Below are positions 13,221 through 44,580 of a stretch of DNA of 64,000 bases, piece after piece (within the stretch, counting starts at the first letter, position 1; each line of letters begins with the position of its first letter). The DNA is from an uncultured Desulfospira sp. (GTDB lineage Bacteria; Desulfobacterota; Desulfobacteria; Desulfobacterales; Desulfobacteraceae). The position numbers and the translations under genes are program-made. Location of the stretch: positions 5,856,001-5,920,000 of the forward strand of contig OY760175.1 in the NCBI GenBank assembly GCA_963663165.1. Direction: 5' to 3'. The notes under the pieces are model-generated. The model searched no databases and was not told where the DNA came from. It saw only the letters and a program-made list of their open reading frames with translations.

Positions 13221-14384
13221 CTATTTCTCCTCCACCGGGTTGACCGTCATCCCTTTAAGGTAATGGCTCAAGGGGTGGATCAGGATTTTCCGGGGCGTGC
13301 CGGCCAGGTCTTCGGGCGGTATGACGTAGACGGCATCCTGGTAGCTGAACAGCGGCTCTGTGGAAAAAGAGGCCAGGGTGTTGTCCGCGGCCACATACCA
13401 GATTTCCCCTTTCTGGCTGAAGGCCGATCCGGGCAGTTCCCACAGGTTGTCCATGGTCTGTCCGTTGATGGTGACCTTGACAAAGGTGTTGAACAGCAGG
13501 GGCGGGTCTGAATCCAGGGGGCTGTCCAGCGCAACGATAAGCCTTTGCTGCCTGGATTTTTCATCCACCTGGCCCAGGGCCCGCAAAATATAACCGGTCC
13601 ATTCCCGGCCGCTCTGGGCATGAACCAGGGTCACCGGCCACTTTCCGGAACTGAGGGCCTTTGTATCGGGCAGGCCCGACCATTGGGAGTCGGACAGGGA
13701 GACCGTTATTTCGGCCCGGTCGGTGCTGTAGAGGGCGGCAAGGGTGGACCCGGCCTGGACAAAGCTGCCAGGAGAAACACTCCGTTCCACCACCAGGGCG
13801 TCAAAGGGGGCCGTGATTTTGGTGTGGGACAGGTCGGCTTTGGCGGTTTCCACAGCCGCCTTGGCTGCGGCCACGGCCTGCTTGGCGGCCGCTACCTGGG
13901 GGCCCCTGAGGACCAGTTCCGAAGCCGGCTCCCCTGAAAGACCTGAAGATTGCCATTCCGCCTTGGCCTGGACCGCCTGGCGCTGTTCTTCCAGCAGGGA
14001 CAACTGGGCATCTGAAAGCTCTTTTTGGGCCGTGGCCAACGCCTGCCGGTACTCGGTATCGTCCAGCGCGGCCATCAATTCCCCTTTTTTGATCCGTTTC
14101 CCGGTCTCAAAGGCGTTGGAGAGGGTTTTAACCTGCCCTGAAACCCTGGCGGTCAGGGTAAGTTCAAAATGGGGGCTGACACTGCCAAAGCCGGTGATCC
14201 GGGCATGGTAGCTGCCGGCAGAAACCATGGTCACGGATACCTCCGGGTGCTGGACCACCTCTTCTTTCTGGAGGGCCGGCCGGGCGGCCTGGGCCTTGAC
14301 GGCTTTCTGGATATAAAGGACAATGCCGGCCACCATAAGGACGGCGGCCAGAAATACGAGAAATTGAAAAAGGCGTCGTATCAT
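13221..14384 (-). CDS. RND periplasmic adaptor (membrane fusion protein)
   Basis: N-terminal TM, ARVSGQV, coiled coil, ITAPFDA; lies between the TolC-like and RND genes. Confidence 0.9.
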   Translation of the reverse strand: MIRRLFQFLVFLAAVLMVAGIVLYIQKAVKAQAARPALQKEEVVQHPEVSVTMVSAGSYHARITGFGSVSPHFELTLTARVSGQVKTLSNAFETGKRIKKGELMAALDDTEYRQALATAQKELSDAQLSLLEEQRQAVQAKAEWQSSGLSGEPASELVLRGPQVAAAKQAVAAAKAAVETAKADLSHTKITAPFDALVVERSVSPGSFVQAGSTLAALYSTDRAEITVSLSDSQWSGLPDTKALSSGKWPVTLVHAQSGREWTGYILRALGQVDEKSRQQRLIVALDSPLDSDPPLLFNTFVKVTINGQTMDNLWELPGSAFSQKGEIWYVAADNTLASFSTEPLFSYQDAVYVIPPEDLAGTPRKILIHPLSHYLKGMTVNPVEEK

Positions 14385-15733
14385 TATTTTGCTCCAATGC
14401 CCAGCGCAAGTCCTAAGGTGATCCGGTTGGCAAGGCGTTCATATTTAAGGGTGTTCAGTTCAATGGCAAGGTCAAAGGTCTTGGTCTGTACCGTGAGCAG
14501 GTCCAGCATGTCGCAAAGCCCCTGGCGGTAACTTTTCCGGTACTGGGCAAGGGTGTCAATGGCCGTGTCAAGGGCGGCTTTAATATGGCCCTGCTGTTTG
14601 GCCAATGATCGCTCAAGCCCTAAGGCGTCCTCGATCTCCTGAATCGCAGTGTACAGGGTTTCCCGGTAGGCTTCAAAGGCCTGGGCGGTTTCAAGCCCGG
14701 CGATTTCTGCCTGGGCACGAAGCTGCCCGCCCTGAAACAGCGGTGCGGTGAGCTGGCCCAGCAAAGACCAGGCAGGACTTGTCAACAGGGCGGCCTCAGG
14801 AGAGGAAGCGGTATCGATAAGGGCGGCCTCAAGGCTGATAGAGGGCAGCAGGTCTTTATAGGCCACATCCGCATTTAAATCAGCCGCTTCAATGGCCAGA
14901 TAAGCGGCTTTAAGGTCAGGCCGCCGGTTAAGGGTCTGCTCGGGCAGGCCGGCCAAAGGGAGCAGAACATCGGCATACTCATCCGGGATGGAAACCGCTG
15001 TGCCGGGTTGGCCCAAAAGGGTGTTAAGGGCCCGCTGCTGCTGGGCAAGGGTTTCCCGGTAGCCTTCAAGGGAAGCTTTGGCCGATGAGGTTGCGCTTTT
15101 GGCGCTGTCCAGGTCTTCTAAGGTCCCTAACCCGGAACGGTACCGTTCCCTGGTATAATTTTCCGTTTTTTCAAATACTTCAAGACGCCTTTGCTCAATG
15201 GCAATGGTTTTCTTTGCCGATGTCAGCCCCAGCCAGGCGGTCATGATTTCCGCAGCCAGGGTATCCCGGGCTGACTGGTAGAGCATTTGCTGCTCTTCGA
15301 CATTCTTTAAGGCGGCCTTTGAGCTGTCTTCAAGCTTATGCCACAGATCCAGTTCCCAGCTCACGGTAAGGGAGCCGGTATACACATCATCCTGGTCCTC
15401 TTCCTTGGAACCTGAAAACCCGGCGGAGACTCCGGGCAGGGTTTCGCCTTTGGTCTGCCGGTACTCGGCCTTGCGGATTTTTAAGGTCAACAGGGTCTGG
15501 GCAAGACCCGGGTTGGCCTCAAGCCCTTTCTCAACCAGGGATTCAAGTTCCTCTGACTGGATCAGGTCTCCGAGAATGGTGACCTCCCAGCCCGTGTCAG
15601 GGCCGTTGAATGTTTCAATCTTTGTCTGTTCGTTTTCTGCCATGGCCGCATAGTCCCTGTCCTGTCCCGTGGTGGCACAGGCAAAGAGCGTCAAAAGGCA
15701 GAGTACGGACAAAATGGATTTGGGGGTGGGCAT
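14384..15733 (-). CDS. TolC/NodT-family outer-membrane efflux lipoprotein
   Basis: Lipobox LFAC, SWELDLW, RRPDLKAA, APLFQGG; ATG 15733 has an AGGAG RBS. Confidence 0.9.
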   Translation of the reverse strand: MPTPKSILSVLCLLTLFACATTGQDRDYAAMAENEQTKIETFNGPDTGWEVTILGDLIQSEELESLVEKGLEANPGLAQTLLTLKIRKAEYRQTKGETLPGVSAGFSGSKEEDQDDVYTGSLTVSWELDLWHKLEDSSKAALKNVEEQQMLYQSARDTLAAEIMTAWLGLTSAKKTIAIEQRRLEVFEKTENYTRERYRSGLGTLEDLDSAKSATSSAKASLEGYRETLAQQQRALNTLLGQPGTAVSIPDEYADVLLPLAGLPEQTLNRRPDLKAAYLAIEAADLNADVAYKDLLPSISLEAALIDTASSPEAALLTSPAWSLLGQLTAPLFQGGQLRAQAEIAGLETAQAFEAYRETLYTAIQEIEDALGLERSLAKQQGHIKAALDTAIDTLAQYRKSYRQGLCDMLDLLTVQTKTFDLAIELNTLKYERLANRITLGLALGIGAK

Positions 15734-15812
15734 CGTAACTCCTGTCTGACGGATATGGCTTCTTGCTCCCATCATATAGTTTAAAAATTCCTGTTTTCTA
15801 TCATGTACCGTC

Positions 15813-25193: not shown

Positions 25194-25916
25194 ATGAAAC
25201 CCTTGGTCATCCTTAAAGCCGGGGACACCTTCCCGGATTTAATTGAACCGTTCAATGATTTCGAAACCTGGATCGAAACCGGGCTGGAACTGGGCACAAG
25301 GCCGGTTGAGGTGGTCGATGCCCGGACCGCTGAAACCCTGCCGGCCCCCGGTCAAATACAGGGCGCTGTCATTTCCGGGTCCCACGCCTATGTCACCGAT
25401 GGCCTTGACTGGAGCCTAAAGCTGGAAGCCTGGACCCGGGAACTGGTCCGCTGCCGGGTGCCGGTTCTGGGTATCTGCTACGGCCATCAGATTTTAGGCA
25501 AAGCCCTGGGCGGGACAGTGGATTTTCATCCCGTAAGCCTTGAAATCGGTACCCGGGATATAGCGCTGACCCGTTCTGCAACAGGTGATCCCCTGTTCCA
25601 GGGGCTGCCCCGGCAGTTTAAAGCCCATGTCTTTCATTCCCAGTCGGTGACCGTTTTACCCCCTGAAGCGATCCTGTTGGCCAAAAATTCATTTGAGCCC
25701 CACCAGGCCTTCCGGGTGGGGGACAATGCCTGGGGGGTCCAGTTCCACCCCGAAGCCTTTGCCGCCATTACCAAAGGATATATTCAACATCTGGAAGCCG
25801 ATGTCCGGGCATCGGGCCAGGACCCGGATACCCTCATTGATCAGTTGGAAGAGACCCCTTTTGCGGCGTCCATTTTAAAGCGGTTTTCCAGCCTGGTTTC
25901 TGGATACAGACAATAG
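25194..25916 (+). CDS. Class I glutamine amidotransferase-like protein
   Basis: ISGS, LGICYGHQ (catalytic Cys), GVQFHPE (His-Glu). Confidence 0.9.
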   Translation: MKPLVILKAGDTFPDLIEPFNDFETWIETGLELGTRPVEVVDARTAETLPAPGQIQGAVISGSHAYVTDGLDWSLKLEAWTRELVRCRVPVLGICYGHQILGKALGGTVDFHPVSLEIGTRDIALTRSATGDPLFQGLPRQFKAHVFHSQSVTVLPPEAILLAKNSFEPHQAFRVGDNAWGVQFHPEAFAAITKGYIQHLEADVRASGQDPDTLIDQLEETPFAASILKRFSSLVSGYRQ

Positions 25917-25921
25917 ATGCC

Positions 25922-27169
25922 ATGAAGTCTTCTTCCGGTGCCGGCATCCGGCGGACCACCGTCCTGAGAATTTTTCTGCCCTTTACCTTTGGGTATTTTT
26001 TGTCCTACGTGTTCCGGGTGGTCAATGCCGTCATTGCCCCTGACATTGCCCAGGACCTTGGCATTGGCCCGGCCGATTTAGGGCTGGTGACATCGTCTTA
26101 CTTCATTTCTTTTGCGGCGGCCCAGCTGCCTTTGGGGATTTTTCTGGACCGGCTCGGGCCCCGGGTGGTGGAATCCTTTCTGCTCTTGTTTGCCGGGGCT
26201 GGGGCCGTTATTTTTGCGGTGTCGGACAGCCTGACCGGGCTGATTCTGGGCCGGGGCCTTATCGGGTTCGGGGTATCGGCCTGCCTGATGGCGGCCTTTA
26301 AAAATTATGTGATCTGGTTTCCTTCAAAGATTCTGGCCCGGGTCAATGGATTTCAGGTGGCCTCAGGCGGGATGGGTGCCCTGGCTGCGGCAAGCCCGGT
26401 GGAGTGGGCCTTGAGCGTAACCGGATGGCGGGGCTTGTTTTGGGGCCTGGCGATCTTGTCCTTTGGGATTGCAGCCCTTATTTTCCTGGTGGTGCCCGAA
26501 TCCCCGGATAAAAAATCTCCGGAAAGCCTTTCAGACCAGATCCGGGGTATTGTCACGGTTTTCAAAAGTCCGGTGTTCTGGCGGATCACCCCGCTGGCCA
26601 CCCTGTCCCTGGCCGGGTATGCCTCCCTTCAGGGACTTTGGGCCGGTCCCTGGCTCAGGGATGTGGCAGGCCTTGGCCGCCAGGACGTGGCTGCGGCCCT
26701 GTCTGTATCCGCCCTGGCCATGATTGCCGGCTATATTCTCTCAGGATATTTGGCAGAACGGCTTTCCAGGCGCAACATCCCGGTCATGAAAACCGCTGCC
26801 GCCGGCATGGCCGGATCCATGTTGGTTCTTTCGGTTATTGCCTTTGACCTGCCCGTTTCGCCGTGGATCATCATGGGATTTTTCGGCTTTTTCGGCACCA
26901 TGGGGATTCTGGCTTATACTTCCCTTACCCTTGCTTTTCCGCCCGCTCTTTCAGGGCGGGCCACCACCGGGCTGAACATGCTGGTGTTTGCCGGGGCCTT
27001 TGCCGTCCAGTGGGCCATCGGTATAGTCATTAACCTGTGGGAGGTTTCAGCCGGCAACACTTATGACCCGGCCGGATACCGGGCCGCATTTTCAGGGCTT
27101 CTCTTTTGCCAGGCAGCGGCGTTGATCTGGTTTTGGATTTCAGGCAGGCGGCCAGATCAGAGGGCTTAA
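25922..27169 (+). CDS. MFS transporter
   Basis: About 12 hydrophobic segments; motif A-like GIFLDRLGPR. Confidence 0.9.
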   Translation: MKSSSGAGIRRTTVLRIFLPFTFGYFLSYVFRVVNAVIAPDIAQDLGIGPADLGLVTSSYFISFAAAQLPLGIFLDRLGPRVVESFLLLFAGAGAVIFAVSDSLTGLILGRGLIGFGVSACLMAAFKNYVIWFPSKILARVNGFQVASGGMGALAAASPVEWALSVTGWRGLFWGLAILSFGIAALIFLVVPESPDKKSPESLSDQIRGIVTVFKSPVFWRITPLATLSLAGYASLQGLWAGPWLRDVAGLGRQDVAAALSVSALAMIAGYILSGYLAERLSRRNIPVMKTAAAGMAGSMLVLSVIAFDLPVSPWIIMGFFGFFGTMGILAYTSLTLAFPPALSGRATTGLNMLVFAGAFAVQWAIGIVINLWEVSAGNTYDPAGYRAAFSGLLFCQAAALIWFWISGRRPDQRA

Positions 27170-27551
27170 CCTTTGCCCGGATGCTGACCAAAAGGTTGGC
27201 CAGGATAACCGCCACCACCAGGCCGAATACGAGCCAGGCCCTTGAGGTGAATGACGCCTTGCCGGCCCAGGCCGCATAGGCATAGGGAAGGATGGTATTC
27301 ACCAGGAGGATGCCGCCCCAGATGAATACCGCTTTGATATTCATGGCCTTTCGCCGGGCCATGGAATTGACAAATTGGGACAGGCTCAGGATATAAAGGG
27401 GAACCGTTGCCATGTCCAGAAACAAAAACAGATACGGATTGATGTTATGGTTCCTGGCCAGATCACAGAAAAGCCAGAATTTGGCCAGATCATACCCCCA
27501 CAACAACAGCATGGCCTTGATCTGGTGATTCCGTGTAATGTTGAAAGCCAT
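27030..27551 (-). CDS. Hypothetical membrane protein, last gene of the ligase/psd/lgt-like operon
   Basis: ATG overlaps the TAA of the upstream gene at 27551; about 4 hydrophobic segments; 3' end overlaps the convergent MFS gene. Confidence 0.7.
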   Translation of the reverse strand: MAFNITRNHQIKAMLLLWGYDLAKFWLFCDLARNHNINPYLFLFLDMATVPLYILSLSQFVNSMARRKAMNIKAVFIWGGILLVNTILPYAYAAWAGKASFTSRAWLVFGLVVAVILANLLVSIRAKVKPSDLAACLKSKTRSTPLPGKREALKMRPGIRPGHKCCRLKPPTG

Positions 27552-28600
27552 TAAATTTTGTCCCTGACCACGTTAAAGCGGATCACTGCATCGGTGACGG
27601 TGCTGCGGCCCGAATGCCAGAAACCCGCAAGCCAGACCAGCTGGATAAACAGCAGGACTCCCGGATCCCAGATGGACTTGATCCCCTTGCCAAGGTCCAT
27701 GGTGACCAGGCCCAAAGGGAGCAAAAAGGCCAGGACACAGGAATAGGCAATGGCCCCTAAGGCCATGTACTGGTACATGGAAAATTTAAGTTCGCCTCTG
27801 AAATCGGCCCTGAAAAACTCCGATATCACCCGCCAGGCCTGGGTAATGATCAGGGTTTCAAGGAAGGCCGCCCGGATAGACCCCTCTAAGAAAAGCCAGG
27901 TGCCCACCAGCGCCGACATCCCGTAAATCATGGAGGTAATCATCTGGATGGGAATCATCTTTTCCCCGTCAAGCCCCGAGGCATAGGCAATCTTCTTGGT
28001 CTTTCCCGTGAACACCACATAGAATTTTGAGAACAGGCGGCGGGTAAAGGGGGCGCATTCCTTTAAGGGTTTTCCGTAGCAGCAGCCAAAGCTCAGGCAT
28101 GCCAGCCGTCCCAGGGACTCCCCATAGGCATAGGCAATGGACACCGCGGCCAGCATGACAAATACATCAACACAAAACCCCATGAGCCGTCCGGCGGTCT
28201 GATTGACCAGAAGGATAATAAAGGGGCCGGCGATGGTCCCCACAAACACCGCCCCCCCAACGGTCAGGGTGGCCTGCTTTTTTTCCACGATCCCTGCCAC
28301 AATTTTGGAGGCCGGAATGGTAACGGCCAGAAACAAACCTGTTAATATCAGCAGGGCGGACACGGGAATCCCGGCCCCAACGGCCAGAACCAGTAACATG
28401 GCCACACTGAAGGCATAGGCAGCAGCCGACAGCAGGCCGTACCAGGTCAGGTTCAGACCCTGCCAGGACCCGTTGCCGTTTTTTCTTAAAGGAACCGCGG
28501 CCGCCATCTGCCATTCTTCCCCGGGCAGATATTTAAACCCCCAGCCCAGCACCAGCACCATAAAAATTCCCAGCCCGAGAACAAATAAAAAAGATTCCAC
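27551..28600 (-). CDS. Divergent prolipoprotein diacylglyceryl transferase (Lgt)-like membrane protein
   Basis: WYG, GESLGRLACLSFGCCYGKP, PIQ, WRVISEFFRAD; polytopic; the canonical HGG reads VGG. Confidence 0.75.
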   Translation of the reverse strand: MESFLFVLGLGIFMVLVLGWGFKYLPGEEWQMAAAVPLRKNGNGSWQGLNLTWYGLLSAAAYAFSVAMLLVLAVGAGIPVSALLILTGLFLAVTIPASKIVAGIVEKKQATLTVGGAVFVGTIAGPFIILLVNQTAGRLMGFCVDVFVMLAAVSIAYAYGESLGRLACLSFGCCYGKPLKECAPFTRRLFSKFYVVFTGKTKKIAYASGLDGEKMIPIQMITSMIYGMSALVGTWLFLEGSIRAAFLETLIITQAWRVISEFFRADFRGELKFSMYQYMALGAIAYSCVLAFLLPLGLVTMDLGKGIKSIWDPGVLLFIQLVWLAGFWHSGRSTVTDAVIRFNVVRDKI

Positions 28601-28619: not shown

Positions 28620-29630
28620 TCATCTCGCCTGGGCGTTCGCCTGGGCGATCTCGGATCTCACCTTGACCTGTGTTTCCACCAAAGGCCGCCCAAAGCCTAC
28701 GGAAAAGCGGCTTTGGGCGTCTGTTCTGGCCATATTTTCCAGAATATCCCTTGAAACGGCCACCTTTTCCTTTTGAAACATCAGGATGGTGGTGGAACTG
28801 CCCGGCTTAAAAAGGCTTTTGGGCTGGCCTTTTTTTAAAAACAGCCCCGGGGAGACCTCAACCGGATCATGGTACCCCTGATCAGAATAGCACTGGACAA
28901 TGTTGCCGATCATCAATGCCACCACCTCCACCATGGCCACAAGCCCGATGCCGTCGCCGCCGTCCACATCCGTATCAATAATGGTCACCACCCGCCGGTT
29001 TTTGGAGCAGGGGGTCACCATCCGGACAACGGCCCCGGGATTGCAGGAGTGAAAACGGCCGTCAATTTCATATATATCCAGCACCCTGCCGGATACGGGC
29101 ACATGGTTGTAATGGTACTTGTCCGGGGTCAGCCTGAAAATGGCAAAATCTCCGTCTTCAAAGGCCCAGAGCCAGTCCGGCCGGTCCGTCCCGATGAGTT
29201 CTTTAAACTCGAAAAATTTTTCTTTTATCCGGATGGGGCTGTTCTCTTTGAATGATCCGGCCAGGACCATGGCGTCGGCAGGGGACACCACCGCTCGCTT
29301 GTCCTCCGGCATGGGCCGAAGTTCCTCAAAGCGGATTTGCCGCTCAAACACCTTTCGAAATGAGGTCAGCTCATTTAAGGCCCCCCGGATCTCACTTAAA
29401 TCAATCCCATGGGTTTTCAAAAAAGAATGGGGATGGACCGGCGGTGTTCTGAACCTGAAGTCATAATTGAGCGCTCCCAAAAGGGCCGATGTGCGCGAAC
29501 ATGTCAGAAGGTTAAATAAGACCGGGGCCTTTTCCCTTATATCCGAATAAACCAGGCGGATAACCCGGTCTTTGAATAATTTTTCCGTAACCACACGACC
29601 GGTTTCCCGGTCAACAAACTGATGCGTCAT
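28620..29630 (-). CDS. psd: Phosphatidylserine decarboxylase-like (pyruvoyl) enzyme
   Basis: VSPAD, FRLTPDKYHYNHVP, NRRVV, VEVVALMIG, autocleavage-type site FKPGSST. Confidence 0.85.
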   Translation of the reverse strand: MTHQFVDRETGRVVTEKLFKDRVIRLVYSDIREKAPVLFNLLTCSRTSALLGALNYDFRFRTPPVHPHSFLKTHGIDLSEIRGALNELTSFRKVFERQIRFEELRPMPEDKRAVVSPADAMVLAGSFKENSPIRIKEKFFEFKELIGTDRPDWLWAFEDGDFAIFRLTPDKYHYNHVPVSGRVLDIYEIDGRFHSCNPGAVVRMVTPCSKNRRVVTIIDTDVDGGDGIGLVAMVEVVALMIGNIVQCYSDQGYHDPVEVSPGLFLKKGQPKSLFKPGSSTTILMFQKEKVAVSRDILENMARTDAQSRFSVGFGRPLVETQVKVRSEIAQANAQAR

Positions 29631-32028
29631 ATTTCGCTTTTTCCCTGCTGATCACAAGGATGATAAGATAAATTAATTTTTTTAGATCCTTGATCTTAAG
29701 ATGGTTGTCCTCAAATCCCTGCCGGGCCGCCTTAAAAAAATCCGGCAGATCCTGGTTGTCCAGAATGCTTTCAAGGGCCTGTCCGTATTTAGGATCCCGG
29801 TAGGAGGCCCACAGGTCCATTTTCCAGGACCCCTTTTCAAGCAGGTCAAACCCCTGGGCAATATGGGTTTTTCTTAAGTTTTCCCGGTAGTGCTGTTCGG
29901 CCTGTTTATTAAATTCCCGGCCATTGACCGTCATGGGGTTTTTGGCCCCGGGGTCCTGTTTCATTATCCCGGCGGCCAGTTTTCCCCAGGCGGCATACCG
30001 TTGGGGGTGGGTAATCCGTTTTTCCAGGTCTATAAGGACCCTTTCCATTTTAAGGGCCTCCACCAGGCCGGCCCCGTCGGTCTTTAACAGGTGAATCAAT
30101 GCCTTTTGGTAGGCCTTGACGCTGATTTTTGTGTAGCCCGGATACCGGTGGCTTTTTTTGGTTTTCTCGACAGCCTTGAGAATCTTGACCAGAAAGGCAT
30201 TCTTTGTTCCGGTGTTAACGTAAAACACCGGGATATTGATGGCCGTACAATAAAAAATCTGGCGGCGTTCGCTTTCCACTTCCGGGTCATCCGGAATCAT
30301 GGGGTGGCTGATTTTTCCGGACAGGATATACTGATAGGCAAGGCAGGTGATCAGCCGCTGCAAATCAGCCGCATTGCCCATGTCCTGGCAGACATTTTCA
30401 AAAATGGAAAAATACCGGTGTTCAAACCCGGAATATCCCATCTGAGCATGTTTCCTTAGGCGGATCAGCTGATACAGGGCCATTCTTTCATCAAAGATCC
30501 CCATCTCGGTTAAGTCTTTTTTAAGCTGCTGTTCGCTTTGGACCCTTCCGTCCAGGGCCGGGCTTTCAAAGGTACTCATGATGGAGGCAAAATAGTCGAT
30601 GAGCCGGTAATCCGGTATAAAATCCCCTTTCAGGTTCAGCACCCGGGAGATCATTTTATCCATTATAACGGGGCCGAAGGGGGTTAAGGGGCGGCCGATC
30701 ACCTTGATGGCGGCCTTGGCCTTCCATTTTCGCCAGATCATGCGAAGATGGGTATAGTCCAGTTCATGGGGCAAAAATCCCAGGACCTGTTCAGGGTGGA
30801 AATCCTTGAATTCCAGGCGAAAGGGAGAGGCGCTGTAGATGCCGGGAAACAGGGGCAGAAAATGCTCGCTGATTTTGATGACCAGATCCCCCACCATTTT
30901 TTCAAAGGGTTCTCCCAGGCCGTAAGCCCGGTCCGCCATGAGTCTGGACAGCTTCAGGCTGCCCAGGCTGATGTGGGTCCCGTTGTTGGCCAGGCTGATG
31001 TTGGAGGTGTCCGGCAGCACCACCAGGTTGGAGGTGATGATTCCGGCCTCCTTGAGCTTGGCCATACCGTTGAGCCGGCTTCGGGACAACACCTTGTGGC
31101 AGATGTTCATGTAATCTTTTTTGGCTTCGCCCCGGTCCCACCCCGAAAGGCAGGGGCTCATGAACAGTTCCCGGTAAAATGAGTCTGAAATGCAGCTGTT
31201 CAGTTCTCTCTGCCGCAAGGGCGGAACAGAGGAAAAGAACACCTTTACCTGCTGGCCGGTTTCGGTCAGGTGAAATTTTTCCTGGGCATAGGCCACCAGG
31301 ACCTGGATGAGCAAAAACCGCAGCAGGGTTTCACCGGCCAGTTTCTGGCCAAGGCCGGAACCGGCCTTCTCAGACTTGACCGGATGAAAAGAAAACAGCT
31401 CAGGCGAGGTGTTGTCATTGGAAAAGTGGGCCAGCATCTGTTTGCCGCACTGTTCTATGGGGGCGGATAATTCAGGCTCATCTCCCAAGGCATCGGCCAG
31501 GGAAAGCTTTAACAGATAACTGACCGGAATCCGGATAACGGTCTGTCCATTGGCGTTGAACACAAACTCATCCACGTCTTTGCGGTATCCCGAAGAAGGA
31601 TCGGATTTATCGGCCTTTAAATCGGAATTAAACACTGTGTTGGCAAAGGAATTCAAGGTTTGCCGGGGCAGCCTGACCCAGGAGTTTTCCCAGACATCGG
31701 TCCGGGTGTCGGAAAGGTATTTTTCCAGGGCCGCGATGGGCTTATCGCTGGTATCTCCGGCCCTGGCCCGTCTCACGATGTTTTTATAGTAGTTGGAAGA
31801 TTCAATGACCAGGGGCAAGTCCAGGTTTTCCCGTCTGCCCTCAACCACGGCCTGAAATTCATTTTCCGCCCCGGCCGTGGCATCCCCGGAACAAAAGGGA
31901 AGGGCGCGGATAAACGCATCTGCCCGGGTGGTATCGATTCCTAAAACCCGGGCAAGGGACATCCCGCCGGCATCGTCCGCATTTGCCTGGTTCTCAGGCA
32001 TATTTAAGCTGTGTTGGTATAGGGCCAT
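29611..32028 (-). CDS. Uncharacterised 805-aa protein with glutamine synthetase/glutamate-cysteine ligase-type motifs
   Basis: TAGAENEFQ (GxExE), TSPE, NNGTHISLGS (NxGxH) and FEHR (ExR) in the expected order; overlaps psd by 20 bp. Confidence 0.7.
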   Translation of the reverse strand: MALYQHSLNMPENQANADDAGGMSLARVLGIDTTRADAFIRALPFCSGDATAGAENEFQAVVEGRRENLDLPLVIESSNYYKNIVRRARAGDTSDKPIAALEKYLSDTRTDVWENSWVRLPRQTLNSFANTVFNSDLKADKSDPSSGYRKDVDEFVFNANGQTVIRIPVSYLLKLSLADALGDEPELSAPIEQCGKQMLAHFSNDNTSPELFSFHPVKSEKAGSGLGQKLAGETLLRFLLIQVLVAYAQEKFHLTETGQQVKVFFSSVPPLRQRELNSCISDSFYRELFMSPCLSGWDRGEAKKDYMNICHKVLSRSRLNGMAKLKEAGIITSNLVVLPDTSNISLANNGTHISLGSLKLSRLMADRAYGLGEPFEKMVGDLVIKISEHFLPLFPGIYSASPFRLEFKDFHPEQVLGFLPHELDYTHLRMIWRKWKAKAAIKVIGRPLTPFGPVIMDKMISRVLNLKGDFIPDYRLIDYFASIMSTFESPALDGRVQSEQQLKKDLTEMGIFDERMALYQLIRLRKHAQMGYSGFEHRYFSIFENVCQDMGNAADLQRLITCLAYQYILSGKISHPMIPDDPEVESERRQIFYCTAINIPVFYVNTGTKNAFLVKILKAVEKTKKSHRYPGYTKISVKAYQKALIHLLKTDGAGLVEALKMERVLIDLEKRITHPQRYAAWGKLAAGIMKQDPGAKNPMTVNGREFNKQAEQHYRENLRKTHIAQGFDLLEKGSWKMDLWASYRDPKYGQALESILDNQDLPDFFKAARQGFEDNHLKIKDLKKLIYLIILVISREKAKYDASVC

Positions 32029-32062
32029 GGCCTGTCAGTTATCCTCATTATAGATCCGGATA

Positions 32063-32128
32063 ACTATACCAGGCCAATGTTTTAATCGTGTTACAATGGG
32101 GCTAAGGCAATGTTACGGGCGTGCTAAA
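32063..32128 (-). promoter_or_regulatory. Pho-box-like array (five half-sites, 11-bp period) plus -10 element
   Basis: Minus strand TTTAGCAC/CCGTAACAT/CTTAGCCC/TTGTAAC-ACGA-TTAAAAC, then 10 bp, then TATAGT; plus-strand half-sites start at 32078, 32089, 32100, 32111 and 32122. Confidence 0.7.
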
Positions 32129-32196
32129 ATTGTATGAGAAAGAACGGAGATTGAGTTGATCTGGCTGCTGCAGACCGCATTCCCTTCATCTTTGAC

Positions 32197-32233
32197 AAAA
32201 AAAATCCCTCCGGATCTTGATCCGGAGGGATTT
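32197..32233 (-). terminator. Intrinsic terminator of the 32259-34277 gene
   Basis: AAATCCCTCCGGATC-TT-GATCCGGAGGGATTT hairpin followed by a U-run on the minus strand. Confidence 0.8.
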
Positions 32234-32258: not shown

Positions 32259-34277
32259 TTATTTTTTTCTGGATCTTCTTGTCAGCATTGCCAGCCCAAA
32301 AAGGCCTGCCGTGAGAAGTTCCAGGGTTCCGGGGACGGGAACCGCACTGGTTCCGGTGACCGCATAGATCCCTTCTTCAAATACAGTAAAGCTGGCGTAA
32401 GTGCCGTCAAAGGCAAGGTCATAGGCATCGTATGAAATCCAGGTGCCGTTGCCGCCTTCTTCAGAGTAAAACCAGACCATCAGATCCAGGATGTCCCCTG
32501 CATCCGCAGCCCATAAAGAAAGATAGAGCGGGTTGTCTTCGCTTTCCATGTACACTGATGTGGAAAAATCCCAGACCGAAAAAATCACCCCATCCTCACT
32601 GATCTCCCCTTCAAGCGCATCATAAACACCACCTGCCGTGATGTCGGTCATGGTCAGGGAGATTGCAGTGGATGTCTCAGCCGCCAGAAAGCCTGCCCCC
32701 GCAGATTTGCCGTTAATATCATCGGTGATAATGGCCCTCTGGTTATCCAGCAGGTCAAGCGTTGCTGTGGCTGAGTTGTCTCCATGGGCAGTTACAGCTT
32801 CGTAAACGGTAATGCTGGCGTTTCCAGCTGTTGACTCTCCACCTGTTACACTCAGCACCCCGCCCAGGGCCTGGATCGTGCCGTTGTTGGTTATCGAATC
32901 GTAAGACAGAAGGGAATAAGTTGTGGAAGTGGTCGTGCTTCCATCCCCGGCCGATACCCCGGCACCCGCCACTAAGTTGATGGTACCGTTGTTTGTAATC
33001 GCTTCATCAGCAGAAAGGCTGCTGTTGGCATCCACGGTCAGGGTTGAACTAACGGAGATAAAGACGCCATTATCACCTGAACTGACTTCTGAACCCGCAC
33101 TAACCGTGCCGCCATCCGTTACGGACAGTCTGCCTGTACCGCCCGTATTTTCGATGCCCAAGGCAATGGTCCCGCTGCTGCTCATTGAAGAGCCTTCCCC
33201 GTTAACGTTCACTGTTCCGGTGGCGCCGGATTTTTTTCCAATATACGTGTATCCGTTTGTTGCAGTACCGCCGCCGCCGACAAATAAGGTGCCATCCCCT
33301 TCAGATCCTACCGTGATGCTGTGATCATTTTCCCAGGTGCCGCCGTCAACAATGACGGTTCCGTCGGAACCGGACTGGTTTCCGATGGTTGTCTGGTAAC
33401 TTTCCAGAGAGCCGTTATTGATTACGTTCAGTGTGCCGGTGCCGCCCTCGCCGACATAAAGGTGGTAGCTGTCCCAGGAGGAGTCGGTTCCGTCAATGGT
33501 TGCCGTACCGTTGGAACCATTGGTGTATCCGATATATGCATTCGATCCTGTGGTATTGGTGGTTACGGTGCCGCCGCCGCTGACGGTCAGTGAGCCTGAA
33601 CCGCCCAGCCCCACATAGAGGTTATTGCCGCCGGTGCTGTTTTCAATGGTTAATGAGGAACCGCTTCCGGATACGGTTACGGCACTGGTGGACAAGGCAT
33701 TATCAGCAATCGTCATGTCGGTATCCGTCGTTACCGTGCCGTTGTTGGTGATATTCAGAATCCCGTTTCCAATATTTCCTACAAGGATTGCCGAATTATC
33801 AACCGCCAGTGTGCTGTTGTTAACATTTACCGTTCCACTGGAACCGCCCTGGTCGGCAATTGTGATGCCGTATTTTTTTCCGGGATTGACGGTCCCGCCG
33901 TTGGTAATATTCAGTATGCCGGTTCCATAATAGCCCACAAAGAGATCCTGGGTGACATTAAATGTGGCACCGGCGCCATCAACTGTAACTGTTCCGCTGG
34001 AACCGGCATAGGTGCCGATATATCCGGGGCCGACGGTTACTGAACTCCCGGCATCAATCATAAGTGCCCCTGCGCTGTCTTCTCCAATGTCGACTTCCAT
34101 AGCGCTTGTCCAGTTAACAGGATCATTCATACCGGTTTGATCTGTGATTTCGGTAAATCCTATCCAAACAGAAAAATCCCCTGAGACGGTTGGCGCTGCA
34201 TAAGCGGCTGGCGCCGTAAAAATCCCTGCTGCCAGCAGTGTGCATAGCAGGCAGGTCCCCAATAAAATTTTTTTCAT
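32259..34277 (-). CDS. Secreted repeat protein (T5SS/PEP-CTERM-associated repeat type) with VPVP-CTERM sorting signal
   Basis: Signal peptide ending AYA; repeats of the form YVGxxGxGxLxIxNGGxV / IGxxxGSxGTVxVDG; C-terminus AVPVPGTLELLTAGLFGLAMLTRRSRKK. Confidence 0.88.
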   Translation of the reverse strand: MKKILLGTCLLCTLLAAGIFTAPAAYAAPTVSGDFSVWIGFTEITDQTGMNDPVNWTSAMEVDIGEDSAGALMIDAGSSVTVGPGYIGTYAGSSGTVTVDGAGATFNVTQDLFVGYYGTGILNITNGGTVNPGKKYGITIADQGGSSGTVNVNNSTLAVDNSAILVGNIGNGILNITNNGTVTTDTDMTIADNALSTSAVTVSGSGSSLTIENSTGGNNLYVGLGGSGSLTVSGGGTVTTNTTGSNAYIGYTNGSNGTATIDGTDSSWDSYHLYVGEGGTGTLNVINNGSLESYQTTIGNQSGSDGTVIVDGGTWENDHSITVGSEGDGTLFVGGGGTATNGYTYIGKKSGATGTVNVNGEGSSMSSSGTIALGIENTGGTGRLSVTDGGTVSAGSEVSSGDNGVFISVSSTLTVDANSSLSADEAITNNGTINLVAGAGVSAGDGSTTTSTTYSLLSYDSITNNGTIQALGGVLSVTGGESTAGNASITVYEAVTAHGDNSATATLDLLDNQRAIITDDINGKSAGAGFLAAETSTAISLTMTDITAGGVYDALEGEISEDGVIFSVWDFSTSVYMESEDNPLYLSLWAADAGDILDLMVWFYSEEGGNGTWISYDAYDLAFDGTYASFTVFEEGIYAVTGTSAVPVPGTLELLTAGLFGLAMLTRRSRKK

Positions 34278-41249: not shown

Positions 41250-44200
41250 TTATCTTTGGCGTGTTCTCGGAAGCCCGGCCATGGCCAGAAGACCTGCGGC
41301 CAGGAGACACAAAGAACCCGGAAGCGGCACGGAGGCGATCCCCGTTACGGCATAGATGCCGAGTGCTGTTGTGGTAAAGCTGGCATAGGTGCCGTCAAAG
41401 GCCAGATCCACGGCGTCGAACTCTTCCCACCCTGTTGTTGTCAGACACCAGATGGTCAGATCCAGGATATCGGATGCTGAACCGGCATCCAGCGACAGAT
41501 AGACCGGGTGTTCCGTGTCTACCGTATAATCTGATCCGGAAATCGAAAAGCTCCAGGCGGACAGGATCTCCTCATCGGTTCCGTAAATGATGCCATTGAG
41601 CATGCCATACGCATCGCCATAAGAAACGCTTATTTTCAGGTTAACCTCAGTTGAGTCGTCAGTGCCCAGAAAGCCTGCCCCTGCCGACAAACCCGAAGCC
41701 ATTGTCAGCAAGGCCCTTTGGTTGTCTTTAAGATCAAGGGCCATGGTTTCCCCGCTGGTTGTAGCCTTAACCGCATCAGCAACGGTTATAGTATGGTTGT
41801 CGGCATTCCATTTCCCGCCCAGGGCCTGGACAGTGCCCTCTCCGGTGATGGTGCCGTAATTCATTGGTACGTATTCGCCGGAGGCCGCACCGGCACCGGC
41901 CACAAGGCGGATGGTGCCCTCGTTGGCTATCTGTCCGGTCCAGCTGTTTTCCCCTGTTCCAACATTTACCTGACTGCTCACATCAACTGAAGTGATGGAA
42001 CTGCTGTTGATGCTGAGTTCAGAGGTACTGACCAGGCCGTCATCGCTGACGGACAGATATCCGGTACCGCTGCTTCCCACACGAATCGCATAATTACTGG
42101 TGCTGAAATCGGAGCCTGAACCATTAACCCTGACCGTCCCGGTGCCGCCAGTGGCGACACCGATTGACGCCCCGGAACTGGTAACGGAACCGCCGTTGGA
42201 AACGGTTAATGAGCCGGTTCCTTCATCTCCTACATAGAGAAAACTGCTGTTGGTCCATGTGGCATCTTTTCCGTCAACATTAACGGTCCCGATGCCGCCA
42301 GTGTCCTTGCCGATGAAAGCGGATGAACTGGTAACGGAACCGCCGTTGGAAATGGTCAATGAGCCGGTTCCTTCATCTCCTACATATAAGTTGCCGGTGT
42401 TGGTCCATGAGGACCCCTCACCATCAACAGCAACGGCCCCGCTGGCACCGGCCTTATATCCTATGTAGTTATAACCGCCTGTATTTGTAAATGATCCCCC
42501 ATTGGTGACAGTCAGCGTGCCCGTGCCGGAATTTCCTACATAAAACTTGCCGGCGTTGGCCCATGATGCTCCCTCACCGTCAATGGTAACGCTCCCGCTG
42601 GATTCGGAACCGGTGCCAATAAAGGTGCTTGTCCCGGTTGTTGTTACCGATCCTTTATTGGTGACCGTCAACTCTCCGGTGCCGCCATTCCCGATATAAA
42701 AGTTACCGCTGTTTTCCCATGAAGACCCCTCTCCGGTCACGGTAACGGTCCCGCTGGATCCGGACGATGTTCCTATAAAGCTGCCGGCCGTGGTGATTAC
42801 TGACCCGCCGTTGATGATCTCCAGGATGCCGGTGCCGCTGCGGCCCACATAAAAGTAACTGCCGCTGTTGCGCCATGAGGACCCGCTGCCATCAACAGTG
42901 GCAATACCGGTAGAGCCTTCGGAATACCCAAGATAACCTGAGCCGGATGCGACGGTCACGCCATTTTTTATGGTAAGGGACCCTTCTGCATTATATCCAA
43001 TCCCAAAGACACTGGAATCATCAAAATTTAAATTTATGGTAACGCTGTCTGCCAATAAAGATAAGGTGTTACTGCCGGGGTCTTCAAAACTAATATCCAA
43101 GTCACTGATGAGCCCGGCGGTGTTAATAGTGCCGGCACCTGACAGTTGAGAAAGGCTGCTGATATACAGGCTACCGGTTTCCAAGGTGCCGCCGTTACTC
43201 CCGAAAGCAATGCTCCCAAGTGTTCCTAAAATGGTATTATTTGTAATCGTAACCGTTGACTGGTTTAAAATATTAAGAATCCCCGTACCGTCTTTACCTA
43301 TATAAAGGCTGCCGGTGTTGGTCCATGAGGATTTCGCCCCATCAACCGTCACTGTTCCGACAGATCCGGAATCGTAACCGATATAGGTGGCCGTCGGGGT
43401 ATTCTCCACTAATCCGCCATGGGTTATATTCAGGGTCCCTGTGCCGGATTTGCCCACGTAAAGAGTCCCGCTGTTGGTCCATGTGGAGCCTTCCCCGTCA
43501 ACATTAACCGTCCCGTTGGCGTCTTCAGAATATCCGATATAGCTTGAGCTGCCTGTATTGGTAACTGATCCCCCTTTGGTGACGGTCAGGGTGCCGGTGC
43601 CGTAATACCCGGCATAAAATTTACTGGCGTTAGTCCATTTAGAGCCGTCTCCATCAACGGTAACGGTTCCGTTACCGGTGCTGCCTGATCCGATATAGCT
43701 ATAACTTGAACTGCCTGTATTTGTGACTGATCCTTTGTTGGCAATCTTCAGGGTGCCGGTACCGGCCCCCCCCACGTTGAGATTACCGTCGTTGGTCCAG
43801 GCAGATTGTGCCCCATCAACATTAACCGTCCCTTGAGAACCGAACGAAGATCCTATGGTACTGCCATTGACGCTCACGGATCCGCCATCAGAGATATTCA
43901 GTATGCCGGTGCCCGATCCCCCCACGTATACATAGCCGTCATTGCTCCAATTGGAGCCAGTCCCGTCTACGGTGACGGTTCCGTTGGAGCCCGACGAGTA
44001 ACCAATATAGTTATAGGTTCCTGTAGAGGTTACGGACCCTTTATCGGTTATTTCCAGTGTGCCGGTGCCCGATCTGCCTATATAGAGGTTGCCGCTGTTG
44101 CTCCATTTGGAGTCTTCTCCATCAACAAGGACGGTTCCCTCGGAACCGGACAAATACCCTATGGTTCCGATTTTAACAGCCAAAGTCGCTTTATCGGTAA

Positions 44201-44393
44201 TGGATAATGCCCCGGTCCCTGTGTAACCAATGTACGCTGAGGTTTCATCCGTCCAATTTTCAGGATCACTTTCGGGGATGACGTTTCCGCTGGCCGTTAG
44301 ACCTGCATAAGCAGTGGAAGCCATGAAAAGCCCCGCTGCCAGGATTGAAAATAACGTGCATAAAAATCGAGGTAAAAAAGAAATCCGTTTCAT
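41250..44393 (-). CDS. Large secreted repeat protein (T5SS/PEP-CTERM-associated repeats) with VPLP-CTERM signal; paralog of 32259-34277
   Basis: Start MKRISF (RBS GAAAGGA), signal peptide ending AYA, many ~50-aa GTVTVDGxGSxWxNxGxLYVGxxGTGxLxIxNGGSV repeats, C-terminus SVPLPGSLCLLAAGLLAMAGLPRTRQR. Confidence 0.9.
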   Translation of the reverse strand: MKRISFLPRFLCTLFSILAAGLFMASTAYAGLTASGNVIPESDPENWTDETSAYIGYTGTGALSITDKATLAVKIGTIGYLSGSEGTVLVDGEDSKWSNSGNLYIGRSGTGTLEITDKGSVTSTGTYNYIGYSSGSNGTVTVDGTGSNWSNDGYVYVGGSGTGILNISDGGSVSVNGSTIGSSFGSQGTVNVDGAQSAWTNDGNLNVGGAGTGTLKIANKGSVTNTGSSSYSYIGSGSTGNGTVTVDGDGSKWTNASKFYAGYYGTGTLTVTKGGSVTNTGSSSYIGYSEDANGTVNVDGEGSTWTNSGTLYVGKSGTGTLNITHGGLVENTPTATYIGYDSGSVGTVTVDGAKSSWTNTGSLYIGKDGTGILNILNQSTVTITNNTILGTLGSIAFGSNGGTLETGSLYISSLSQLSGAGTINTAGLISDLDISFEDPGSNTLSLLADSVTINLNFDDSSVFGIGYNAEGSLTIKNGVTVASGSGYLGYSEGSTGIATVDGSGSSWRNSGSYFYVGRSGTGILEIINGGSVITTAGSFIGTSSGSSGTVTVTGEGSSWENSGNFYIGNGGTGELTVTNKGSVTTTGTSTFIGTGSESSGSVTIDGEGASWANAGKFYVGNSGTGTLTVTNGGSFTNTGGYNYIGYKAGASGAVAVDGEGSSWTNTGNLYVGDEGTGSLTISNGGSVTSSSAFIGKDTGGIGTVNVDGKDATWTNSSFLYVGDEGTGSLTVSNGGSVTSSGASIGVATGGTGTVRVNGSGSDFSTSNYAIRVGSSGTGYLSVSDDGLVSTSELSINSSSITSVDVSSQVNVGTGENSWTGQIANEGTIRLVAGAGAASGEYVPMNYGTITGEGTVQALGGKWNADNHTITVADAVKATTSGETMALDLKDNQRALLTMASGLSAGAGFLGTDDSTEVNLKISVSYGDAYGMLNGIIYGTDEEILSAWSFSISGSDYTVDTEHPVYLSLDAGSASDILDLTIWCLTTTGWEEFDAVDLAFDGTYASFTTTALGIYAVTGIASVPLPGSLCLLAAGLLAMAGLPRTRQR

Positions 44394-44580
44394 CTTTTTC
44401 CTTTCTATGTTGAGGTTAATCCAGCTGTCGCCCAAATACCAATTTGCCGGATGGCACCAACCTTCAGGTCCTGGAATATCCGGGTTGACCGGCAGTTCGG
44501 CCCGTACTTTTTTCATGCTTTTATGCAGGAACCGTATCCCCCGCACAGAATGAAGGGAATTCAGTAAAGAAAAACGGAAA

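Follow-up and report, generated by a model that had tools for sequence, protein, structure and literature searches.

We analyzed a window of 64,000 nucleotides (the whole stretch of DNA considered here) from the genome of an uncultured Desulfospira sp. (GenBank assembly GCA_963663165.1, contig OY760175.1, positions 5,856,001 to 5,920,000). The window contains an unannotated gene, hereafter the ligase gene, whose 805-aa product presents the predicted fold of the glutamine synthetase/glutamate-cysteine ligase (GS/GCS) carboxylate-amine ligases and is likely a gamma-Glu-Cys ligase. This gene heads an operon and is followed downstream by a paralogue of phosphatidylserine decarboxylase (PSD) and then by a paralogue of the membrane transferase Lgt. 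It is very likely that these three genes constitute a lipid pathway of phosphate starvation. More specifically, we propose, with a probability of about 0.55, that the trio is the gene set for the thioether aminolipid BACys, comprising a new family of gamma-Glu-Cys ligases, an Lgt that faces the cytoplasm and modifies a small thiol where Lgt modifies a lipoprotein, and a PSD whose substrate for decarboxylation is a glutamyl head group. We observed conserved residues, a predicted fold, the linkage of three genes, the paralogy of both partners, a promoter repeat and an identity of chemical formula; the substrates, the topology, the order of the steps and the identity with BACys are what we infer from them. 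The ligase gene, its motifs and its two partners are located as follows.

29611..32028, minus strand: ligase gene, 805-aa carboxylate-amine ligase of GS/GCS fold, likely gamma-Glu-Cys ligase (from motifs, model and homologues)
31878-31852, minus strand: motif TAGAENEFQ of the ligase, aa 51
31422-31399, minus strand: motif SNDNTSPE of the ligase, aa 203
30993-30958, minus strand: motif LANNGTHISLGS of the ligase, aa 346
30429-30406, minus strand: motif GFEHRYFS of the ligase, aa 534
28620..29630, minus strand: PSD-like pyruvoyl decarboxylase paralogue, 336 aa, overlapping the ligase gene by 20 nt (PF02666, E 3e-40)
27551..28600, minus strand: Lgt-like membrane transferase paralogue, 349 aa, 19 nt past the PSD-like gene (PF01790, E 3e-8)

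The fold of the ligase was predicted with AlphaFold2 from 87 sequences (pLDDT 88.9, pTM 0.91). A Foldseek search placed GshF, GshA and PafA on top, yet under significance (best E 0.005). Alignment of the model with VIA-align gave a Z-score of 18.4 against GshF (rmsd 4.2, 397 residues aligned), followed by the Salmonella YbdK-type protein (18.0), GshA (17.7), YbdK (17.5), PafA (14.9) and Dop (14.6), whereas GS structures scored 10.2 or less and unrelated folds 5.9 or less. When the model was compared to 48,161 chains, all 19 of the 19 top rows were GS-fold proteins and the next match had a Z of 5.9; only GS/GCS-fold carboxylate-amine ligases exceeded Z 6. Overall, the GCS structures, namely GshF (3LN7, 3LN6), E. 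coli GshA (1V4G) and YbdK/GCS2 (1R8G, 1TT4), match the model at Z 17-18, with an rmsd of 3.6-4.3 over 333-413 aligned residues. An earlier note, made from the sequence alone, had described this protein as a much-enlarged carboxylate-amine ligase and had proposed a structure prediction and search; these recover the GS/GCS fold through VIA-align, Foldseek alone being below significance, and the enlargement is confirmed in that only 337-413 of the 805 residues align to GS/GCS structures.

The same note had listed four ordered motifs in this open reading frame (ORF), and all of them are present (aa 51, 203, 346 and 534). By itself, the loose ordered pattern GxExE..E..[NG]xGxH..ExR arises by chance in 21 of 5000 shuffles of the ligase protein and is found in 3 of the 482 ORFs of 600-1000 aa in the source genome, the ligase included. 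We compared the ligase to its homologues of at least 700 aa (220 out of 224 proteins) and found G53, E55, E57, D205, E210, N348, H352, R525, E536 and R538 to be invariant (220/220). We also considered 32 distant representatives, the long members of clusters at 50%, which share 23-48% identity with the ligase: E55, E57, D205, E210, H352, R525, E536 and R538 are intact in 30 of them, and the remaining two present gaps across some active-site positions and zero substitutions. The family is, however, well conserved throughout, with 151 of the 805 positions at 99% or more, so that invariance alone cannot single out the motif residues; the fold match does.

The GS-fold carboxylate-amine ligase superfamily has been defined by a six-stranded saddle fold with motifs assigned strand by strand (PMC2588565, available in part). 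The ligase model presents this saddle fold, and its motif residues lie on or beside the core strands in the expected order. The GhExE motif of strand 1 corresponds to G53-x-E55-x-E57 on strand 50-57 (220/220; position 54 is mainly S, A, V or T), and the acidic residues of strands 2 and 3 correspond to D205, just past a short strand, and E210, on strand 210-212 (220/220), these two being assigned by order and not by superposition. For the strand-4 motif [HD]x[NH], H352 is invariant on strand 350-357 and the third position is S in 220/220 homologues (N in 1 of the 32 distant representatives). The strand-5 arginine is R525 on strand 522-525, with R475 (or R404) as the arginine of the preceding loop (220/220). 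Finally, for the strand-6 motif Ex[RK]xxD, E536 and R538 are invariant on strand 534-540 and the position of the Asp is S541 in 220/220. The ligase thus departs from the consensus twice: all 220 homologues have HxS where [HD]x[NH] is expected and ExRxxS in place of Ex[RK]xxD; PafA also departs from the strand-6 motif, yet it is counted as a member of the superfamily in the part of PMC2588565 consulted.

The order of the ligase motifs parallels that of E. coli GshA (25, 60-67, 131, 147-150, 199, 234, 302 and 325-330): ExE, the strand-2/3 acids, the strand-4 His, the strand-5 Arg and the strand-6 ExR follow one another in both. In addition, YRE(L)F at position 285 of the ligase resembles YREGL at position 131 of GshA, which we take to have a role in the cysteine pocket. 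The protein differs from the known glutamate-cysteine ligases by its low identity (12-14%), the absence of a profile match, a length of 805 aa with large inserts, the HxS and ExRxxS variants and a linkage to lipid genes instead of gshB. Taken together, the modeled fold and the motif order indicate that the ligase almost certainly belongs to the carboxylate-amine ligase superfamily, with a predicted dependence on ATP and Mg. It presents no transmembrane or hydrophobic segment (the highest 19-residue mean is 1.58).

At the level of sequence, the ligase falls outside the GshA, GCS2 and PafA families. No Pfam, NCBIfam or PDB-sequence match was found for it, and the ligase, 31 members of its alignment and 12 distant representatives had no GS/GCS Pfam match at E values up to 1-10; the profile cut-offs of PF04262 (GshA) and PF04107 (GCS2) are not reached. 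A profile-profile comparison, also suggested by the earlier note, gave nothing significant: hhalign yielded E 0.63 against the single E. coli GshA and E 0.11 against YbdK. A search of the ESM Atlas returned "hypothetical protein" clusters only, the plasmid and phage collections gave no match, and a single-protein search of the genome contigs returned 1 locus only. The family itself is large, with 2875 clusters at E 0.001 or better (of 7994 scored candidates) and 875 representatives at 50% clustering, and across 301 genomes of the phylum we found 33 strong matches and 1 weak match. All the named matches are "hypothetical" and come from Desulfospira, Desulfobacter, Desulfotignum, Desulfobacterium, Geobacteraceae, Syntrophales and Ca. 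Wunengus. In view of the published literature, the ligase represents a new family, and the lipid pathway in which it would take part is likely new as well and assembled from folds already known.

We further analyzed the linkage of the three genes across 32 genome loci: L001 and the flanks from every other genome with a strong ligase match except G191, whose ligase gene lies at a contig end (31 of 32). Both the PSD-like and the Lgt-like genes are found downstream of the ligase in 32/32 of these loci, with intervening genes in L037 and an internally shortened Lgt-like ORF in L061. Out of 578 confirmed metagenome stretches, we considered the best 80: the PSD-like gene comes next in 68 of the 69 loci with at least 600 bases downstream, and the Lgt-like gene is found in 50 of the 56 loci with at least 1900 bases downstream; among the six loci lacking it, three have a flank of 3.3 kb or less, and L123, L126 and L141 are true departures within 6 kb. 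In the 301 genomes, the ligase, PSD-like and Lgt-like subfamilies each occur in 33 genomes, with a union of 34 and all three in 31, although related genomes are not independent in these counts, whose carriers span many families. Two of the three genomes with an incomplete trio have the gene at a contig end; one genome, G129, has no ligase match and its contig ends 146 bases upstream of its PSD-like gene. No fourth gene family is conserved over 33 loci (ORFs of 90 aa or more). In the window, a further gene is probably co-transcribed with the operon; it lies outside the conserved module, with one occurrence in the 32 genome loci and one in the 80 metagenome loci.

27030..27551, minus strand: hydrophobic ORF, 173 aa, overlapping the stop of the Lgt-like gene

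E. coli PSD uses a D90-H144-S254 triad and a Schiff-base mechanism on membrane-bound substrates (PMC7952604, available in part), and this mechanism requires that the carboxyl to be removed be adjacent to a free amine. D119, H173, H176 and PGS(S/T) are kept in 33/33 PSD-like proteins, all of which present the Asp-His-Ser triad and the G|S self-cleavage loop. R166 stands in place of Y137 of PSD, a substitution shared by about 15% of PSDs (PMC7952604, same part) and for this reason not diagnostic of the substrate. The protein falls under every NCBIfam PSD cut-off. A separate psd gene of canonical type is found elsewhere in the source genome, such that the PSD-like gene is a second copy; it further differs from phosphatidylserine decarboxylase (PF02666) by its YHYNH and PGSS motifs and by its linkage to the ligase instead of pssA.

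Likewise, the Lgt-like gene is a second copy beside a canonical lgt. Its model (pLDDT 92.2) matches E. coli Lgt (5AZC, PF01790) at Z 13.0 (rmsd 4.0, 229 aligned), with the next match at 7.6. The equivalents of Y26, G142, R239, E243 and R246 of Lgt are present in 32/32 Lgt-like proteins and that of R143 in 31/32, so the Lgt fold is accompanied by the arginines of the phosphatidylglycerol head group. Lgt moves a diacylglyceryl from phosphatidylglycerol to a cysteine thiol and frees glycerol-1-phosphate, and its TM6-TM7 gate faces the periplasm (PMC8689077, available in part). The Lgt-like protein differs from Lgt by extra N- and C-terminal helices, by the lack of His103 and by a reversed charge bias. 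Indeed, when the loops are delimited manually, the face corresponding to the periplasmic side of Lgt carries on average 20.9 Lys and Arg residues against 2.9 on the other face (in 32/32 proteins), this Lys- and Arg-rich face also being the longer one; restricted to short loops, the values are 6.6 and 2.9. For comparison, the same faces carry 7 and 13 in E. coli Lgt and 9 and 12 in the source genome's own Lgt. Positively charged residues tend to be retained on the cytoplasmic side of membrane proteins (the positive-inside rule). The reversed bias therefore suggests, from charge only, that the active face is likely cytoplasmic and inverted relative to the periplasm-facing site of Lgt, which would place it on the same side as the soluble product of the ligase.

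The region upstream of the operon presents the following elements.

32068-32063, minus strand: TATAGT, beside the Pho-box-like repeat
32088..32127, minus strand: Pho-box-like repeat, four half-sites [T/G]T[A/C]A[C/T]A spaced by 11 bp (from a motif search by expectation maximization)
32202..32233, minus strand: terminator-like hairpin, a 14-bp stem-loop with a T run

The hairpin likely ends the transcript of the upstream gene, in which case the operon would need its own promoter. A sigma-70 scan of the 32029-32201 gap found no promoter. A hand-written promoter pattern matched 3 of 32 upstream regions, the one in the window not being among them, and a hand-weighted genome scan for the repeat returned 0 sites. 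We then rely on the expectation-maximization search across 97 distinct upstream regions, which gave a period-11 repeat a likelihood of 181, compared to 73-86 at periods 9, 10, 12 and 13. After retraining on 95 regions, with the window and L001 excluded, the likelihood was 176, compared to 11-24 in 3 shuffles. With this model, the ligase promoter ranks 3 among 2887 upstream regions with four half-sites and 2 with three, and the phosphate genes phoU, pstC and pstS rank 1, 5 and 12 with four half-sites. These 11-bp-spaced direct repeats are therefore common to the ligase promoter and the pst and phoU promoters and, together with what we take to be the Pho box consensus, this suggests that the repeat at 32088-32127 is likely a Pho box and putatively a PhoB site. 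Among the loci of at least 10 kb, 11 of the 31 from genomes and 11 of the 35 from metagenomes contain genes for PstS, PstCAB, PIN-PhoH or alkaline phosphatase, counts that have no background control. Two other statistics were set aside: a coding-sequence control, which scored 334 against 181 for the motif, is invalid because homologous coding DNA is conserved (other periods and shuffles were used instead), and the observation that 60 of the 97 upstream regions exceed the 95th percentile is circular and was not counted.

Other genes also scored high under the Pho-like model. With two half-sites, no upstream region of the genome scores higher than the gap that precedes an RND efflux outer-membrane gene (14384-15775, minus strand); this gap contains a perfect 7-base repeat with a spacing of 11, perhaps the site of another OmpR-type regulator. 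Further high scores (L151-L157) concern genes whose products are a vWA protein, a PEP-CTERM protein, a DksA-type protein and a surface protein of 1888 aa that matches the purple-acid-phosphatase N-terminal domain; these genes are candidate members of the Pho regulon.

The connection to a specific lipid comes from chemical composition. Phosphate-starved Desulfatibacillum alkenivorans PF2803 contains sulfur aminolipids named BACys, tentatively N-butyramide cysteine glycerols, which rise from <1% to about 65% of the lipids at low phosphate and give a fragment at 205.064 (C7H13O3N2S+) (PMC11181052, available in part). The removal of CO2 from gamma-Glu-Cys leaves C7H14N2O3S, for which we computed an (M-H)+ of 205.0641, and the addition of diacylglycerol gives exactly the BACys formula: the predicted 35:0 lipid, C45H87N2O7S+, has a mass of 799.6229 for a tabulated 799.6228. 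For this 35:0 lipid, the predicted masses are 843.613 for the precursor and 799.623 for the product. The formula is shared by 4 of 506 amino-acid pair combinations, among which only Glu and Cys minus CO2 fits a C4 unit plus cysteine. A thioether and its sulfoxide would be compatible with the observation of an ion at 205 (not 207 or 189) and with the +O species in the list. No genes for BACys are named in the available text of PMC11181052 or were found in our literature searches, most subscription papers being outside their reach, and the words "glutathione" and "decarboxyl" do not occur in the available main text of that paper.

Based on these observations, we consider it probable, by analogy with the enzymes of known fold, that the pathway would run as follows. 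The ligase would join Glu and Cys with ATP, through gamma-glutamyl phosphate, into gamma-Glu-Cys. The cytoplasm-facing Lgt-like protein would shift a diacylglyceryl from phosphatidylglycerol to the thiol of gamma-Glu-Cys, freeing glycerol phosphate for phosphate recovery. The PSD-like pyruvoyl enzyme would react with the free alpha-amine of the glutamyl moiety, forming a Schiff base, and strip the alpha-carboxyl of that moiety; the last two steps could take place in either order. The end product would be S-diacylglyceryl-N-(4-aminobutyryl)cysteine, which has the BACys formula and, being zwitterionic, could take the place of phosphatidylethanolamine. The substrate, which the earlier note had left open while assigning the class correctly, can in this way be narrowed: the operon partners, the Pho-box-like promoter and the formula match suggest gamma-Glu-Cys destined for a lipid head group.

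Several observations weigh against this proposal. The fold scores of GshF, the YbdK-type protein and GshA lie within 1 Z of each other, with PafA and Dop near, such that cysteine specificity is not singled out. The Lgt-like protein lacks both His103 and Asn146, which E. coli Lgt requires (PMC8689077, same part), and has V, I, A or F in place of the His of His103-Gly-Gly; the source genome's housekeeping Lgt (L063 1420-2262) has Phe and Cys at the two positions, which indicates that Lgt proteins do not all carry the catalytic His of textbooks. In locus L141, both partners are absent from the 5.7 kb downstream of the ligase, and loci L123 and L126 have no Lgt-like gene within 6 kb. The ligase promoter ranks only 63 with a two-half-site model, and the promoter model leaves low a PhoA-like gene (2409), PIN-PhoH (2354) and a large GT4 gene (262). 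The formula, with its four amino-acid pairs, cannot alone separate a thioether from an ester; the BACys structure is tentative in the part of PMC11181052 available and may be an isomer of the predicted lipid. Finally, no named D. alkenivorans record is among the ligase matches, so the link from producer to gene is missing.

Some of these points feed the leading alternative, which we view as possible but doubtful: the trio could make a phosphorus-free aminolipid other than BACys, built from another amine (serine, homoserine or homocysteine) or another acid, with the Lgt-like protein forming an O- or N-link. The linkage, fold and promoter evidence all fit equally, the lost His103 and the lost histidine of HP[ST]Q indicate a changed acceptor site, and Asp plus homocysteine minus CO2 has the same formula. 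However, the chemistry of the Lgt fold is known for thiol acceptors (PMC8689077, same part), the best fold matches of the ligase are glutamate-cysteine ligases, and the product of Glu and Cys matches a lipid found in a sulfate reducer under the same condition and described as butyramide plus cysteine (PMC11181052, same part).

It is unlikely that the same end product is reached without free gamma-Glu-Cys, with the ligase either glutamylating S-diacylglyceryl-cysteine at the membrane or joining preformed 4-aminobutyrate to cysteine. The approximately 400 ligase residues outside the aligned core could bind a membrane or partners, and two motif positions differ from known GCS enzymes, but the absence of a hydrophobic segment and the resemblance of YRE(L)F to the GshA motif speak against this reading, and the membrane-bound substrates of PSDs favor a late decarboxylation (PMC7952604, same part).

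Two further explanations appear very improbable. A PafA-like system, in which proteins or a peptide tag would be ligated and anchored to lipid, would be in line with the PafA and Dop matches at Z 14-15, with the modification of proteins by Lgt and with PEP-CTERM-type proteins upstream in the window; against it, the GCS enzymes score 3 Z higher, strand 6 of the ligase reads ExR and lacks the PafA/Dop motif [QH]x4D, no proteasome- or Pup-type neighbor and no fourth conserved family was seen among ORFs of at least 90 aa (33 loci), and the charge bias puts the transferase face in the cytoplasm. The other explanation, that the ligase simply supplies the GshA function lacking in this organism, to make glutathione or free gamma-Glu-Cys and with incidental neighbors, would agree with a source genome (96.7% complete) that has a GshB-like gene, below NCBIfam cut-offs, and no PF04262 or PF04107 match, but a strong GshB-like match occurs in just 6 of 33 ligase genomes (39 of 301 overall) and the linkage to two lipid genes is near-obligate. 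This GshB-like ATP-grasp gene (G000:C1 830844-831899; L167 6842-7900) adjoins an ABC peptide-transport operon.

The BACys proposal can also be compared to the systems that we take to be the established replacements of phospholipids: PlcP/Agt glycolipids, ornithine lipids, betaine lipids and SQDG. The trio likely shares their purpose and trigger; to our knowledge, none of them has a GCS-fold ligase, an Lgt fold, a pyruvoyl decarboxylase or a thioether product. If the proposal is true, about one in ten sampled genomes of an anaerobic phylum would encode the direct conversion of a phospholipid, phosphatidylglycerol, into a phosphorus-free, sulfur-linked mimic of phosphatidylethanolamine, with the phosphate reclaimed. 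This would represent a new route to phosphorus-free membranes, in which a fold of lipoprotein lipidation is reused for small-molecule chemistry, and it would revise the tentative BACys structure, give a name to a family that comprises at least 2,875 clusters of "hypothetical" proteins and make it possible to trace phosphate stress in anoxic sediments and aquifers with a gene marker. For lipids that rise to about 65% of the membrane lipid of a sulfate reducer starved of phosphate (PMC11181052, same part), the operon would provide three candidate genes, two predicted masses and a promoter.

Additional genes were observed around the operon. In the window, two genes (25194-27169, plus strand) converge on the end of the operon, one similar to class I glutamine amidotransferases and the other for an MFS transporter, an arrangement seen only here and in L001. 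On the other side, proteins of 672 aa (32259-34277, minus strand) and 1098 aa (41250-44546, minus strand) contain 5 and 12 T5SS/PEP-CTERM-associated repeats (TIGR04393), respectively, and end with VPxP, a hydrophobic stretch and a basic tail resembling PEP-CTERM sorting signals; they are not conserved beside the operon in other loci. In L141 (5704-8394), the ligase gene overlaps an upstream PIN-PhoH gene and is followed by genes for a response regulator and a kinase, which together resemble PhoB/PhoR. A DUF3047 gene adjoins the ligase in four genome loci (L034, L035, L037 and L039). Finally, a GT4 glycosyltransferase of about 820 aa recurs near the ligase in L035, L039, L047 and 12 of the 80 metagenome loci, and this gene is a candidate for the glucuronosyl lipids reported alongside BACys.

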